NCBI GenBank assembly: GCA_964016885.1
Contig: OZ024742.1
Span: 281,852,001-281,916,000 of the forward strand
Reading direction: 5' to 3'
From: Eledone cirrhosa
Taxonomy: Eukaryota
Length of the DNA stretch: 64,000 nt
The notes under the pieces were generated by a model. It was not told the DNA's origin and made no database searches. It was given only the letters and a program-made list of their open reading frames with translations. This document shows, one piece after another, positions 891-52,642 of this stretch. The first letter of the stretch is position 1; every line of letters starts with the position of its first letter. The translations under genes were made by a program, and so were the position numbers.

Positions 891-933
891 ACGATGTACT
901 AGTTTCAAGCTTATTAGCTATCATCAGCATCGT
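891..933 (-). ncRNA. Minimal type I hammerhead ribozyme
   Basis: Minus strand acgatg CTGATGA t-agct-aata-agct-t GAAA ctag TA catcgt: 6-bp stem I, stem II, palindromic CTAG domain III. Confidence 0.85.
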
Positions 934-31589: not shown

Positions 31590-32073
31590 ACATAAGAACA
31601 TCTGCTTGCCCCCTTATGCCCTTGAGGTACTGTGAATATAAGGATTAATAACTTTGAATTCAGTAGAAAATGTAATATTCAGTTTGCTTAAATTGATAAA
31701 GAAAAAAGAATCTTTGATTTATTTGTTCAACTTTAGAACAACAGTATGTTACAGTTGGTCTGTTGGTGTTTATACGAACACACACACACACATATATATA
31801 CACACACACGCTCATATATATGCATACATATCAATCATACATACACACCCTCATACTCCCAGGCATGCATGTATATATATATATATATATACATATATAT
31901 ATAAATAATTAATATCTAGTAACATATATATACATACAGATGCATATCAATGCTAGCAAATATATAGGTTTTGTCTTAGTAACTTTGTGGTTCAATGCAT
32001 GGGGTTGCAGAACAATAATATGAGAGACGTAAAATAAGAAAATTATAAAATTAACTTACTTACTAAAATATCA

Positions 32074-32153
32074 CTTCCAACTAATTAGTTTCTGGAATGG
32101 AATAAATATATTTTCCGAAGAAAACACAGAGAATCATTCCGTCGTCAGGGAAG
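32074..32153 (-). ncRNA. Hammerhead with extended domain II (diverged family H copy, element about 31900-32200)
   Basis: cttcc CTGACGA c ggaatg...tgtgttttc TTCG gaaaatata...cattcc a GAAA ctaattag TT ggaag. Confidence 0.85.
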
Positions 32154-32285
32154 ACTATTCTCATCTAAGTATCCAGGCAAAGCGTGGACACTTTGTTTTT
32201 GACCACTGCCGAAATTCGACCTCGCTGAAATTATATTTATATGTGTATATATATATGTGTATATATATATAGAGAGAGAGATAAC

Positions 32286-32371
<86 letters not shown>

Positions 32372-32596
32372 TTATTATTATTAGAAAGTGAGGTTTTTTT
32401 ACAAAAATGAAAAAAAACGATGTGTCCTACACGAGTGAAAGTATAAGGGAAAAAGATGAAATCGAAAATGCAATTGGAGTCTTTTTTTTTTTAAATATAC
32501 TTATTTGGTTCCTTTACCGGTTTCGAAGTTCTTGTGCTTTTCAGAAGTAGAATTGAGATGGAGGGTTTGTGGTTTATCATATATATATACTGTTTA

Positions 32597-33005
32597 TACG
32601 AGTTCTGTCCCAAAAGTAAAGGTACTAATTGTCATATGCACGGCATTGTAATGCAGCACCTCGTTGATGTATATAACCGTGCTATTTACTATCTTCGCTG
32701 TACGTACGGGTCCAGTGATTCGAAAGGACATTATGGGAGATTGGTTACTGCACCACGATAATGCGGCTGTTCACACAACACTTTCAGTTAGAGAATTTCC
32801 GGAGAAGAAAAACGTTCCTGCTCTTCCACATCCTCTCTACATCCCAGATCTAACTCCGTGTGATTTCTACTCCTCTCCTACGTTGAAATCGAAGTTGAAG
32901 GGTCATCATTTTGGTACTGTGGAAAACGTACAAAAAATTGTAACTGACAAGCTAGGGACACTCACAGAAAATTATTTCCGGCACTGCTACGATCAATGGA
33001 AAAAG
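32597..33005 (+). pseudogene. Mariner transposase remnant, internally deleted
   Basis: WLLHHDNAAVH...PHPLYIPDLTPCDF...LKSKLKGHHF; TIR-like TACGAGTTCTGTCCCAAAAGT at 32597. Confidence 0.85.
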
Positions 33006-33068
33006 AGTTCTACGCCTAATATACATTTAAATAAAATATCAGCACCTCCGCTTTTAAGAAAAACCTCG

Positions 33069-33128
<60 letters not shown>

Positions 33129-33135
33129 TGCATGC

Positions 33136-33177
<42 letters not shown>

Positions 33178-33185
<8 letters not shown>

Positions 33186-34557
33186 CGTAAAATAAGAAAA
33201 TCCCTTTAAAAAAAATTTTTTTTTTTAAATTTTTACTTACTTAAATTTTCACTCCAACTAATTAGTTTCTGCAATGGGATAAAGACAGTTACGTAATCTA
33301 ACTGTCGAGAATTCATTGCGTCATCAGGGAGTCTATTCTCAGCTAAGTCTCCAGGCAATGCGCGGACACTGGCGGCTCATATAAAAATAATAATAATTCG
33401 GTAGATGGAACAGCTAGCGAGGACTGAATTCCATGCACTGAAATCCTCACTGCCTCTTGTCAAATGGCCGATTCTAAAGAATCAATCACGTGACACAGAG
33501 GCTAGTCAGAAGGAATGGGATGGTAAGATGACAGACGCCTACTAACACCCCCCCAAAAAAAAATTTTTTTAGAAGTGGTTTTGGCAGGTTTGCTCGACAA
33601 ATCAGTGATTTGGAGATAAATATAGATAATTTAATATATCAACTAATATAAGTGCACAGATGCACGCCTATGCCAGCAAATACACAGGTTATGTCATAGT
33701 ACCTAGGTGGTTCAATGCAGGAGGATGCAGAACAATAATATAAAAGACGTAAAATGAGAAAATCCCTTTAAAAAAAATTTTTTTTTTAATTTTTACTTAC
33801 TTAAATTTTCACTCCAACTAATTAGTTTCTGCAATGGGATAAAGACAGTTACGTAATCTAACTGTCGAGAATTCATTGCGTCATCAGGGAGTCTATTCTC
33901 AGCTAAGTCTCCAGGCAATGCGCGGACACTGGCGGCTCATATAAAAATAATAATAATTCGGTAGATGGAACAGCTAGCGAGGACTGAATTCCATTTATCT
34001 CCAAATCACTGATTTGTCGAGCAAACCTGCCAAAACCACTTCTAAAAAAATTTTTTTTTTGGGGGGGGGGATGTTAGTAGGCGTCTGTCATCTTACCATC
34101 CCATTCCTTCTGCCTAGCCTCTGTGTCACGTGATTGATTCTTTAGAATCGGCCATTTGACTAGAGGCAGTGAGGATTTCAGTGCATGGAATTCAGTCCTC
34201 GCTAGCTGTTCCATCTACTGAATTATTATTATTTTTATATGAGCCGCCAGTGTCCGCGCATTGCCTGGAGACTTATCTGAGAATAGACTCCCTGATGACG
34301 CAATGAATTCTCGACAGTTAGATTACGTAACTGTCTTTATCCCATTGCAGAAACTAATTAGTTGGAGTGAAAATTTAAGTAAGTAAAAATTAAAAAAAAA
34401 AAATTTTTTTTAAAGGGATTTTCTTATTTTACGTCTTTTATATTATTGTTCTGCCTCCTCCTGCATTGAACCACCTAGGTACTATGACATAACCTGTGTA
34501 TTTGCTGGCATAGGCGTGCATCTGTGCACTTATGTTAGTTGATATATTAAATTATCT
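33178..34557. mobile_element. ORF-less element H: about 1.45 tandem 560-nt units plus an inverted full monomer
   Basis: 33178-33432 repeats at 33740-33993; 33994-34557 is one permuted inverted unit; HHRs at 33251-33332 (-), 33811-33892 (-), 34287-34368 (+). Confidence 0.88.
34287..34368 (+). ncRNA. Hammerhead with 51-nt domain II
   Basis: actcc CTGATGA c gcaatg aattctc gacagtta gattacg taactgtc tttatcc cattgc a GAAA ctaattag TT ggagt. Confidence 0.88.
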
Positions 34558-34732
34558 CTCTCTATATATATATATATAACGAAGGAGTTGTGGTAAGGAA
34601 CCAGATGGAACATAACGCACCAGAGTACTCAATACTTAGGGTAGTAGAGTGGGTAATAGGAGAAAGTATAACCCCGACGGCAGAGCTCAAGCCGTTTCGA
34701 CGGGGCTATTTTCGTCGGGGGACATACTTTCT

Positions 34733-47559: not shown

Positions 47560-49650
47560 ATATAAATCTAATTTTCAAAAGGATCTTGATTCTACCCTAT
47601 TGGATCTTAAAATAACTAACAAAGTCCATGTCCACTCTGACAAATCTGGAAATCTATACCACATGGATATTGATAATTACAATGAGTTCATTTATAAAGA
47701 ACTCAGGAAAAATTAAAAAAAAAACAAATAATGCGGCACTTACCAATATCAACAACAAAACACACAACATAGTAAATAAACTCAATATTGGAGATAGAAC
47801 TGAACGTTTTGCACATCCCAGGTAATTAACTGGTTTACCAATATTAGAAATTAATCATCTGCTTCATTTCTACAATTCGATATAGATGCTTATTATCCCT
47901 CTATATCACCCATACTCCTGAACAAAGCCTTGATATTAGCCAAAAATAGATCAAACTTAACTATGGATGACATTAATATTATCACGCACGCTAGACAAAT
48001 ACTACTGGAATTTCAGAAGGAATACTGGACCAGTAATACATATAGTAATATATTCGACATTACTATGGGCTCTAGTGATTCTGCCCAAATTACCGATCTT
48101 GTGGGCCTCTTTCTTCTATTTAACATAAATGCTTCTTTACCCCCACCTTAATGGTGGTTTATATCGTGATGACTGTCTTCTTCCTTAGCCTATCAGAAAT
48201 TGAAAAAAATAAAAAACTTATTAGAACTTTCCTCAAAGACTATTATAGTCTCACTATTACATTTGAAAACACCAGTAAAGTAGTTAATTTCCTTGATATA
48301 ACTTTAGACTTATCTACGGGTATCTACCAACCTTCCCATAAACGTAACCAAAACTTACATTACATACACTCACAATCCAATCACCCTAGATCTATCCTTA
48401 AAAACATAGCATATAATATCTCACTCAGAATGTCTAACCTTTCATCTAACCAGGATATATGCGATAAAAATGCAACCTTTTATAACGAAGCTTTAGCTAG
48501 AAGCGGCCACAAAAACAAATTAGTCTATATACCTTGTACCAGTAATACTTCAAACATACAACCCAATATTACCAACAAACACCAAATGAAAAACACACAC
48601 CTAAATGCCACTCACACTATACCCCAAAATACCAACTTAAAACTTAATTTCTCTACCTCTTCTCACATACAATATAATAACTTTCAAAAAACCATTCATC
48701 CTAATACTCCAATATACGTTAATAACATTACTAACAAAATTCTTATAATCAGACTAAAACACCTAAATCAGTGAATCTAACTAAACCTATATATAATAAA
48801 TTCACTAATACTAACTCTCTTAGTAAACATCCTGATACATCGTATAAATATAAAAAAACAACATCGAAACCGTAATAGACGAGTTACTTGGTATAATGCT
48901 CCATTTAATCTACAAATTAAAGATAATATCCCTAAAAAAATGTTTACTATCCTAGAGAAAAACTTCCCGCCAAACCATAAATACCATCAAATTTTAAATA
49001 GATCAACGGTCAAATTTTCCTACTCCACTACCAAAAATATACAACAAAATATAAGTGCCTACAATGCATATAAATGTAAAAAATACATGAATATACCACC
49101 AACACATCAAACTAACCATAATACTAAAATAAACCGCAACAAACCACCATCTCCTTCACATATAACAAGTCGAGTAAATTCCACATCAAATTTGACTAAC
49201 TCCCCTGATATAATATTCACGAATGGTTGTAACTGTAGAAACAAAGGAAATTGCCCATTAAAAGGAAGTTGTCTTATTAATAACATAGAATATAAATGTA
49301 AAATTAGCACTAAGGACTCCACTTATTCATATATAGGAGCTTCTTCTAACCAATTTAAAGTAAGATTTAATACCCACGAACATAGTTTTAAAAATGCTGC
49401 ATTAGCTAATACAACATCCTTGGCTGAAATAATTAATAATTATAGAAAAAAGAATATCGATTATAACCTGATCTGGAGTGTGATTAAAAGGGTCACCCCT
49501 TATCAAAATAACAGATATGAGTGTAGATTATGTTCCCAAGAACTTTTTTAAATACTGAAATCTAAGGATATCCTATTAAATAAGCGACAAGAATTAATTA
49601 TATCGTGCAATCATATAATTAGAAGAACTTTCAAATATTATAAACCTAAT
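47560..49650 (+). pseudogene. PLE RT plus GIY-YIG, fragmented
   Basis: FDIDAYYPSI, FDITMGSSDSAQITDLVG, GLYRDD, VNFLDITLDL, SNHP, CNCRNKGNCPLKGSCL...YIGASSNQFKVRFNTH. Confidence 0.88.
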
Positions 49651-49808
49651 TAATATACACCTTACACTTATATTTTACAAATTATTATAATTAGTTCTTT
49701 TAATTTAGTTAAGCTATAATTAGTATTTTACTACTGAGAACTTCATAATTTTATTTGCTTTTTACAGCTCTCTTTTCCTAAAATTAATACCTATAAGTAT
49801 ACATATAA

Positions 49809-51773
49809 TAAATAACAAAGAACGCCTATAGCATATGCATATCTTTACTTGCTAACATTGTTTCATCCGCACTATAAGTGGGACTCATCAGAGCATAAAG
49901 GTTAATTACATACCATACAAGCAATAACAAATCCAAGACATTGAAGAATGAAAAATAATAATAGACGATAAAGGATATTAAGGAAGTAAAAGTGAAAATA
50001 AAGATAAGAATAAAAATAAAAATAAAAATAAAAATAAAAATAAAAATAAGGGGTGCTATCAGTCACAGTTGGGCGGGGTGCTGTCAACATATAGTTACAT
50101 ACAAGCATACACATGGATAAGAGAACAGACAAGAGTAGATAAGATAGATAGGATTAGGTAAGAGTAGGTAAAAAATAGGTGAAAAACAGACTTATAATAT
50201 ATATAAGAAAATATAAAGAAATACATAACAAACTTACATATAAAATATAAAATATACAGATAATAGTGATACAGGGTAAGGAATGAGATAAAATAATATA
50301 AAATTAAAATTAAAATTATATAAAATAGAACATAATATAATATAATCATAAAATAAGATAAAATAAAATAAGGTAAACTAAAATCAAATAACATAGACTA
50401 AATTAAAATAAAAATAATATAATATAAGATATAATTAAATGTATAATTAAATGTAATTAAATGTAATTAAATAAATTGTGTACTGTGATTTAGGCTGCAC
50501 TAATAGAAATTTAGCCTGTAACCGTGGGCGGACCTGTGCCATCCCGCCGTAAGCAGTGGATGCGTGGCGCATGTACGTGTTGCCCTCATATTCTGTGGTT
50601 TAAGATCTACAGGCTGACCTCTGGGAGCTCTTGCCCGGGGTTGTAGTCTTTCTAGCACGATCGGCCTTCCTTATATTGACGGTCGTTGTTATGATCCCGA
50701 AAGTAACGTTTTGGCCCCGATAGCCCTCCGTAGTTACTAACGGTCTGTGTACACTTGAATCGGGCAATGGCACGTGCGGACATGAATATCTCCGTAGGAT
50801 TTCAACTTTATTTTACTACATCTCATCGTATGTATTTATTTTGAATGTATTACCTGTGGTGGTGGGTCTGGCCTAACGTGGTATTTCGGTGTTTAATATC
50901 AGCTTTGACCCGGGTGTCCTACGCTGTGTGTGTGTGCGTGTGTGTCCGTGTATACATTTATATGTGTATGGGTGTAGGTGGTTGTATGTGTCTGTATATA
51001 AAAAAAATATATATATATATATGTATACCGTCTCTGCATATGCATGTGGTGTGTATATGTGCATATACGTGCTGAACATATTGATGTGTACAATCTTGTG
51101 ATGTCCCAATGCGGTGACTTACTGGCTCTTGAAGCTATTTTTTATATATCTTCTGTCTTTTTATATATCTTTTGTATGCGCTCCAACTGTGTCTGCTTGC
51201 TTTGGCTAACCCGCCTGCACCTCGCTTGCTAATGCACGTGAATTCTTCTACCTCCCTTCGATGCACCTCTCTCTGACCATTGGACTCCTGCCCGGGTGTG
51301 AACCGGTTTGTGATTACCCCACCGCTCAACTGTGTGAATGCACACCTGCGACTTTCGAGTGAACTTTTGAGACTGCCCAACCTGGGACGCTTCCATTGCC
51401 TTGCAATGGTCAAGTGATACTGATGACTGTGACACTTAGTGCCTTCGTGGGCCCCTGATGTTTTCAAGAAATATATTTTAAAAAAATGGTCAAGTGATAC
51501 ACATAACTGTGACACTTAGTGCCTTCGTGGGCCCTTGATATATTCAAGAGATATATTTTTAAAAAATATATATCTTATCTCAATTTACTTTATTTCATTT
51601 TATTTTATTTTATTTCATTTCATGTTATCTAATTTTATTTATTTACTTATTTAATTCCATTTATTTATTTATTTATTTATTTACTTATTTACTTATTTAT
51701 TTATTTATTTATTTAAATTTAATTTTAATTTTAATTTTAATTTTAATTTTAATTTTATTTATTTATTTAATTT

Positions 51774-51805
<32 letters not shown>

Positions 51806-52642
51806 TTACATTTAATTACATTTAATTATACATTTAATTATATCTTATATTATATTATTTTTATTTTAATTTAGTCTATGTTATTTGATTTTAGTTTACC
51901 TTATTTTATTTTATCTTATTTTATGATTATATTATATTATGTTCTATTTTATATAATTTTAATTTTAATTTTATATTATTTTATCTCATTCCTTACCCTG
52001 TATCACTATTATCTGTATATTTTATATTTTATATGTAAGTTTGTTATGTATTTCTTTATATTTTCTTATATATATTATAAGTCTGTTTTTCACCTATTTT
52101 TTACCTACTCTTACCCAATCCTATCTATCTTATCTACTCTTGTCTGTTCTCTTATCCATGTGTATGCTTGTATGTAACTATATGTTGACAGCACCCCGCC
52201 CAACTGTGACTGATAGCACCCCTTATTTTTATTTTTATTTTTATTTTAATTTTAATTTTTATTTTTATTTTTATTTTTATTTTTATTTTTATTTTTATTT
52301 TTATTTTTATTTTTATTTTTATTTTTATTTTTATTTTTATTTTTATTCTTATCTTTATTTTCACTTTTACTTCCTTAATATCCTTTATCGTCTATTATTA
52401 TTTTTCATTCTTCAATGTCTTGGATTTGTTATTGCTTGTATGGTATGTAATTAACCTTTATGCTCTGATGAGTCCCACTTATAGTGCGGATGAAACAATG
52501 TTAGCAAGTAAAGATATGCATATGCTATAGGCGTTCTTTGTTATTTATTATATCACGGCTCTGTCCTCAGACATTGAGCTAACCTTATGCTGCCTGCTGG
52601 ATAAGTGGAGTGTTATACACCCCTGATCCTCTCCCTAGTATA
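49809..52642. mobile_element. Nested 2.8-kb foldback element with about 700-bp arms and 18-bp TSD
   Basis: 49805-50474 is inverted versus 51800-52552; ctataagtatacatataa at 49791-49808 and 52643-52660; HHRs at 49850-49895 (-) and 52461-52506 (+). Confidence 0.85.
52461..52506 (+). ncRNA. Type I hammerhead ribozyme
   Basis: tgct CTGATGA gtcc cac ttata gtg c ggat GAAA caatg TT agca; stem I extends cttta/taaag. Confidence 0.85.

Follow-up and report, generated by a model that had tools for sequence, protein, structure and literature searches.

A non-coding type I hammerhead repeat of Eledone cirrhosa, probably mobilised by a Penelope-like protein

Structure of the insertion

A core scan of the window, by which we mean the whole stretch of 64,000 nucleotides that was analysed, located four type I hammerhead ribozyme (HHR) motifs, at 33887(-), 33327(-), 34292(+) and 32148(-). 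The first three belong to a single insertion (33176-34565) in which two head-to-head arms, a minus arm of 819 nt and a plus arm of 573 nt, lie within a (TA)n tract (Table 1). A preliminary description of this region had placed the tandem HHRs exactly 560 nt apart, and the predicted cut nucleotides, 33816 and 33256, do differ by exactly that distance. The inverted arm, which had been described as a full permuted unit, corresponds to 1.01 units (573 nt, unit positions 195-560-200), and the unit has no ORF, as had also been stated: the longest frame on the circularised 560-nt sequence spans 50 aa from stop to stop, and frames that start with ATG reach at most 27 aa in the sense and 46 aa in the antisense direction. 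The conserved GTCACGTG-TGATT block within the unit is presumably E-box-like. The near-identity of the arms had been read as a mark of recent activity, but the arms differ at 11/680 pairwise sites (1.6%), which matches the divergence between any two loci of the family (1.5%), so the insertion is no younger than the family burst. The neighbour at 32.1 kb is a member of a young, high-copy family of its own.

Table 1. Positions of the insertion, its hammerheads and the neighbouring copy within the window
Feature	Position	Strand	Remarks
Left arm	33176..33994	-	819 nt: unit 383-560 followed by a complete unit and 78 nt more, up to the short (S) 3' end in (TA)n
Inverted right arm	33993..34565	+	573 nt (unit 195-560-200); stops at the long (L) 3' end in (TA)n
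560-nt monomer, family A, non-coding	33256..33815	-	bounded by two predicted cut sites
Terminal tail between S and L end sites	34444..34565	+	~122 nt, boundaries approximate; on right arm only
HHR 1	33811..33900	-	predicted cut after 33816
HHR 1 stem I	33892-33888/33815-33811	-	predicted pairing
HHR 1 core CUGAUGA	33887-33881	-	extra C follows
HHR 1 stem IIa	33879-33874/33836-33831	-	followed by internal loop
HHR 1 stem IIb	33866-33859/33851-33844	-	predicted pairing
HHR 1 GAAA	33829-33826	-	preceded by extra A; palindromic stem III beyond
Leader GAGAA, predicted partner of stem II loop	33896..33900	-	upstream of stem I
UUCUC, 5' strand of stem II internal loop, predicted leader partner	33867..33871	-	complementarity
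HHR 2	33251..33340	-	sequence identical to HHR 1; predicted cut after 33256
HHR 3	34279..34368	+	predicted cut after 34363
Conserved GTCACGTG-TGATT block, candidate internal promoter	33484..33495	-	alignment of 9 units; putative function
Neighbour, 5'-truncated copy of sister family B (522-nt unit)	31900..32192	-	HHR with its core at 32148 and a predicted cut after 32079; stops at an L end in (TA)n

Other repeats are present in the window and elsewhere in the genome. A fragment at 32652-33011 (+) resembles the C-terminus of a mariner transposase and contains what we take to be mariner-type motifs, with no significant match in Pfam. A further inverted HHR-bearing element (49803-52553, cores at 49891 - and 52465 +) has arms that are 96-100% alike and is adjoined by ORFs at 48124-49548. 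A different small HHR family is represented at 897-927 (-) and as a ~490-nt tandem in L158:8068-9553. An unrelated 459-nt tandem HHR family (L148:6700 and 7159) possesses a long stem II too, which suggests that the extended stem II arose more than once in this genome.

The hammerhead motif and its predicted fold

All elements of a type I hammerhead core (CUGANGA, GAAA and UH, with three helices) are present, and an extra C and an extra A flank stem II. The HHR region of the insertion folds better than shuffled sequences (z=-3.2), as does the 560-nt monomer (z=-5.07); the neighbour's HHR region taken alone folds no better than its shuffles (z=-0.83). Three exact patterns gave 5931, 4453 and 118 matches, with 0, 0 and 1 for the reversed-pattern controls, and the superfamily thus comprises ~10,500 exact-pattern HHR matches in the 3.0-Gb genome. 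By the fold scores and the reversed-pattern controls, neither the HHR nor the monomer is a product of chance. Rfam gave nothing at the gathering threshold and no HHR model at E<=10, where the matches were microsatellite-driven noise alone; that a variant with ~10,000 copies is missed in this way suggests that hammerheads in animal genomes have been undercounted.

Stem III, 10 nt long, is perfectly palindromic, with a predicted duplex energy of -9.0 kcal/mol and 0 for the hairpin, and a misfold in which CUGAU is buried is predicted to be 2.5 kcal/mol more stable than the monomeric active fold. At the base of stem II, 233/246 copies have a C.A mismatch (or two extra bases), a feature that may reduce ribozyme activity. 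The motif has an extra base before G10.1, a G10.1-C11.1 pair and a palindromic helix III, all of them traits of HHRs from Penelope-like elements (PLEs), as given in the accessible part of PMC4209133.

Repeat families and copy number

The unit is non-coding, multi-copy and dispersed. Searching with the family A monomer produced 2722 first-look candidates, of which 38 were scored, the full-length copies having 91-98% identity, and searching with the neighbour (family B) produced 1996 candidates, of which 40 were scored (97-99% identity). Clean single units measure 507-572 nt and fall into many subfamilies; nine of them align end to end and contain no ORF. No LTR-internal-LTR layout was seen at the copies examined, and the (TA)n flanks mask any target site duplication (one of >4 bp being a retrozyme trait). 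A search of metagenome contigs gave 0 matches.

Family A units also occur in an array of at least 19 (L161-L162; G000:C2:312.655-312.667 Mb), several non-adjacent units of which have a G10.1 change in common, pointing to local recombination by unequal crossing-over. Such an array would be expected if the repeat were satellite DNA that spreads by recombination and carries a vestigial ribozyme. It is extremely improbable that this applies to the repeat as a whole, since thousands of dispersed, 5'-truncated and inverted copies have fixed 3' ends in (TA)n, and since compensatory changes between subfamilies speak against a vestigial ribozyme. For the dispersed copies the satellite reading is already largely refuted.

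Covariation and evolution of the ribozyme

The preliminary description proposed selection at the level of RNA structure, including the distal hairpin of stem II, from a comparison of the insertion with its neighbour. The stem sequences that it quoted are all present, stem IIa is 99% paired and the distal stem 88% paired, and support for such selection, as judged by comparing copies, becomes far stronger once subfamilies are added. In a set of 35 subfamily representatives picked by hand, pairing holds in 94.5% of cells and covariation scores 0.383, against 0.156 for shuffled and <=0.102 for slid controls. Two measures that rest on numbers of pairs or types gave no better result than the shuffles (54 and 314 of 500), and the rows are related to each other. 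Pair 2 of stem IIa takes all four Watson-Crick forms (77, 73, 58 and 33 of 246 copies), and at pair 5 U-A is found in 165 of these copies and G-C in 53. When mapped on a tree from the flanks outside the HHR (114 rows), the changes fall on a ladder of subfamilies. The combination of an invariant core and a covarying periphery across subfamilies argues for selection on the fold.

Some particulars of that comparison need revision. The change in stem I from actcc/ggagt to cttcc/ggaag came about by a paired insertion in which the end pair was also lost, and not by two compensatory substitutions; intermediate forms occur among the copies. The inner hairpin, said to be wholly replaced, has evolved stepwise, as intermediate subfamilies bridge both forms. 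The cUUCGg cap is present here but is not conserved, C(UUCG)G being found in 94/246 copies; a distal hairpin of at least 4 bp is found in 228/246. An insert-free ancestor was also considered and rejected: the 118 matches with a short stem II are scattered deletions together with one subfamily that has a shorter distal hairpin.

Pairing between leader and internal loop

The leader, which falls outside the transcript proposed earlier (33251-33892), likely pairs, to judge from the variation among copies, with the UUCUC strand of the stem II internal loop, and the resulting GAGAA-UUCUC helix is probably a pseudoknot. Genome-wide, the leader-loop pair is G-C in 8917 matches, G.U in 140, A-U in 687 and A.C in 83. 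After one variant had been noticed, extra loci were picked on core and loop sequence alone, and among copies chosen in this way, blind to the leader, a GAAAA leader accompanies a UUUUC loop in 13/16. The A-U state is a single clade in the flank tree. The G.U state forms coherent subfamilies (~23 and ~17 of 100 matches listed, counted by eye), one of which sits in the lineage of the A-U clade, and the A.C matches are scattered, ~21 of them appearing mis-registered. Because the A-U copies form one clade, these data represent one full covariation event plus wobble intermediates.

The same leader-loop pairs are used by a nested alternative fold, and it is conceivable that GAGAA and UUCUC form an inhibitory hairpin that delays cleavage instead of a pseudoknot of the active fold. 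Covariation is blind to the distinction between simultaneous and alternative pairing. In the minimum-energy fold of family B exactly these segments form a nested stem while stem IIa is unformed, and when the family A monomer is folded, the leader instead finds its partner in a U-rich tract upstream. In full-length subfamilies, however, the stem II fold leaves the loop strand unpaired, and the two segments, on stems I and II, are antiparallel and each 8-9 nt away from the core, which is the geometry of HHR stem I-II pseudoknots in the accessible part of PMC3088659. We consider the inhibitory hairpin a rather doubtful reading of these segments.

Insertion ends, target sites and source of the arms

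Insertion ends were counted after duplicate retrievals of one place had been removed. The 3' ends lie at two fixed sites past the cut, S and L, at 78 and 200 nt in family A and at 61 and 179 nt in family B, so that the tail between them measures 118-122 nt. Among 55 inverted insertions, 44 combine an S with an L end and 0 have two ends of one kind (S+S or L+L), while in the other 11 at least one end is unclassified; single-arm insertions (n=54) include 21 short-ended and 27 long-ended examples. TA-rich sequence adjoins 126/146 S/L ends. The strict occurrence of S+L ends in (TA)n is the tail signature of PLEs and argues that the repeat is a non-LTR retrozyme, that is, a non-autonomous PLE.

Divergence is similar at the three levels compared: in family A it is 1.4% within arms, 1.4% between arms and 1.5% between loci, and the corresponding values in family B are 1.6%, 1.8% and 2.0%. 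Rare variants shared by opposite arms amount to 0.64 (A) and 2.07 (B) per 1000 sites, compared with 0.05 and 0.07 between loci, i.e. sharing is 13-30 times higher for opposite arms than for different loci. This implies that one source fed both arms, unless gene conversion after insertion, which could likewise have given rise to the shared variants, is responsible. A model with two templates was rejected, as between-arm divergence exceeds within-arm divergence in 17/35 loci (Wilcoxon p=0.79) and the arms share rare variants.

Four arms start exactly at +1. After removal of arms that run on into an upstream HHR, starts within +1..+17 account for 10/32 arms in family A, 9/97 in the pattern-selected set and 0/38 in family B; full-unit coverage was the criterion for choosing the A set, and the 3' end that for the B set. 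When 5' ends were searched for directly and tallied by eye from 100 of 237 matches, 21/37 listed loci start within -5..+4, five of them at the cut. Such ends are suggestive of cleavage in vivo, with TA microhomology as a confounding factor: starts at microhomology hotspots (-20 and -25) are roughly as common as those near the cut.

Search for an autonomous partner

A genome search for GIY-YIG nucleases gave 10,597 candidates, of which 150 were scored. Nine ORFs were tested, and 9/9 match reverse transcriptase (RT) and 7/9 match GIY-YIG as well. In most RT+GIY-YIG ORFs the nuclease is preceded by CX4CXXC, which the accessible part of Craig et al. 2021 gives as the Neptune/Nematis motif. The 3' ends of these elements themselves, among the matches listed, have two lengths in (TA)n, and the L149 family displays the same two-end (TA)n architecture in L153.

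An RT + GIY-YIG ORF is absent from the unit, and no autonomous element homologous to it was found in 40 GIY-YIG loci, three follow-up regions and 30 loci of one Neptune-type family, the 73 sampled PLE loci being top-scoring candidates and so a sample rather than a census. No linked autonomous element emerged from GIY-YIG matches, long-ORF loci, a nucleotide profile or tblastn, and two HHR-near-GIY candidates and one chance neighbour had no linkage to such an element. Since the partner search was confined to top-scoring candidates, and since Xenopus retrozymes are homologous to pLTRs (10.64898/2026.07.22.740005, in the portion available), the unit might be merely the pseudo-LTR of an unsampled autonomous PLE. 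This is improbable, because many subfamilies have tandems of ORF-free units, 507-572 nt from HHR to HHR, and because 0 of 165 HHR loci have a PLE ORF running into the unit. The PLE ORF matches near these loci belong to other PLE families and are >500 nt away or on the opposite strand.

The window also contains, in (TA)n, the 3' end of a Neptune-type PLE (32301-32578, -; 87% to L147). It bears a degenerate hammerhead-like motif similar to the U3-A8 core variant, and related hammerhead-like motifs occur at the 3' ends of other PLE families in the genome. One young, high-copy Neptune-type family (L146, L206-L235) encodes a 1096-aa ORF with 95-97% amino-acid identity in the nuclease region and has a long microsatellite-like 3' UTR.

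A model for mobilisation

We consider it likely, with good though not full confidence, that the repeat is a non-coding, high-copy type I hammerhead repeat (a non-LTR retrozyme) mobilised in trans by a Penelope-like RT/GIY-YIG protein. Its anatomy comprises tandem 507-572-nt units, 5' truncation, head-to-head inversion and (TA)n targets, and structure-preserving evolution is seen in stems I, IIa and IIb. Transcription would run through two or more units, and the palindromic stem III would let two HHRs cleave as a dimer, a lone HHR being predicted to misfold; a 560-nt circle, once released and ligated, would then be stable. The palindrome and the misfolding monomer fit the dimer model in the accessible part of PMC4209133. 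Stem I is likely docked on stem II by the GAGAA-UUCUC pairing, a pseudoknot that would substitute for the usual contact between loops. A PLE protein, probably of Neptune type, would nick both strands of the (TA)n tract, and reverse transcription, begun at site S on one strand and at site L on the opposite one, would proceed back over the cut junction. A start at two sites across the junction would produce tandem units, inversion and a one-sided tail. In vitro work on the anole PLE has placed the tail between two internal RT start sites and has shown cutting as well as extension of both strands (PMC11167929, in the part available).

The template would be a circle or an uncut multimer, with a slight leaning towards the circle. 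The HHR may have been kept while cleavage and circles play no part in transposition, the template being an uncut read-through multimer and the ribozyme only trimming the transcript away from upstream host RNA or acting late with help from a protein. RT has to cross the cut junction in every arm, and 157/171 arms are shorter than two units (the loci being ~3 kb, long arms are undercounted). Published experiments, as far as the accessible texts extend, also bear on cleavage: 8/9 Xenopus retrozyme dimers were uncleaved in vitro (10.64898/2026.07.22.740005), and the anole PLE HHR required protein and was dispensable for insertion, which in the PAc assay was unaffected by HHR mutants, with no reads ending at the cut site (PMC11167929). 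Against an uncut template, the constancy of the core and the covariation of the periphery imply that the fold is under selection, and the 5' ends cluster near the cut, subject to the TA microhomology noted above. We regard an uncut template without a role for cleavage as a substantial possibility, albeit the less probable one. The complete scheme, in which a new HHR architecture (branched stem II, internal loop-leader pseudoknot) is combined with a circle copied by a dimeric Penelope RT from two sites 120 nt apart, one per target strand, is offered tentatively and seems rather unlikely to be correct in every part. If it is, every inverted insertion is the trace of a single circle that was reverse-transcribed by rolling-circle copying with double priming.

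Movement of animal retrozymes has so far been argued from co-occurrence and phylogeny; the insertion anatomy here carries the Penelope signature directly. The rule of one short and one long end, together with a single source for the arms, narrows the possible origins of PLE inversions and tails, a long-standing puzzle, and the subfamilies provide a natural mutagenesis series for a hammerhead variant missed by Rfam.

Comparison with known systems

A literature search, with most subscription papers outside its scope, returned no description of this family or of its HHR architecture. Dimeric PLE hammerhead variants are reportedly treated by Lunse et al. 2017. The kind of element, a non-LTR retrozyme, is already known, and the variant with a predicted pseudoknotted, branched stem II is new by the literature, Repbase and Dfam aside. 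The comparisons below are with the accessible portions of the papers cited.

Metazoan non-LTR retrozymes (PMC7229834; 10.64898/2026.07.22.740005) likewise consist of non-coding tandem units with a type I HHR in each, have a high copy number and coexist with PLEs, and axolotl HHRs have the same short palindromic helix III and weak helix II base. The unit of 507-572 nt is longer than the ~170-400 nt of PMC7229834 but within the 51-972 bp of 10.64898/2026.07.22.740005. Unlike these retrozymes, the element has a stem II extended by an internal loop and a hairpin, and its PLE-type inversion, tail and (TA)n targeting are undescribed for metazoan non-LTR retrozymes in the available text of both papers. 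RNA circles have been demonstrated for those retrozymes (PMC7229834; 10.64898/2026.07.22.740005) and are predicted for the element described here.

PLEs have tandem or inverted structures, a one-sided 30-40-bp tail and a (TA)n bias (Craig et al. 2021). Partial tandems, an inverted 5'-truncated copy, a one-sided tail, microsatellite targets and an HHR upstream of two end sites are all shared with EN+ PLEs of the Neptune/Nematis type (Craig et al. 2021; PMC11167929). In contrast to these, the unit has no ORF and no sequence homology to the sampled autonomous families, and its tail is ~120 nt compared with 30-40 nt (Craig et al. 2021).

PLE minimal hammerheads (PMC4209133) have the same extra base between A9 and G10.1, the G10.1-C11.1 pair, a long helix II, a 5-bp helix I, a palindromic helix III and a predicted dimer. 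They differ from the present motif in that the latter has a second extra base before GAAA, a ~50-nt branched stem II domain, and a predicted 5-bp leader-loop pairing where loop 1 of the PLE minimal hammerheads is poorly defined (PMC4209133). Docking of stems I and II by Watson-Crick pairing is also found in pseudoknotted hammerheads, including human C10orf118 (PMC3088659), an account in which highly repetitive type I representatives were left out of the stem-length analyses; in the present case the leader is predicted to pair with an internal loop, beyond which lies a further hairpin, and the motif is a repetitive animal type I HHR.
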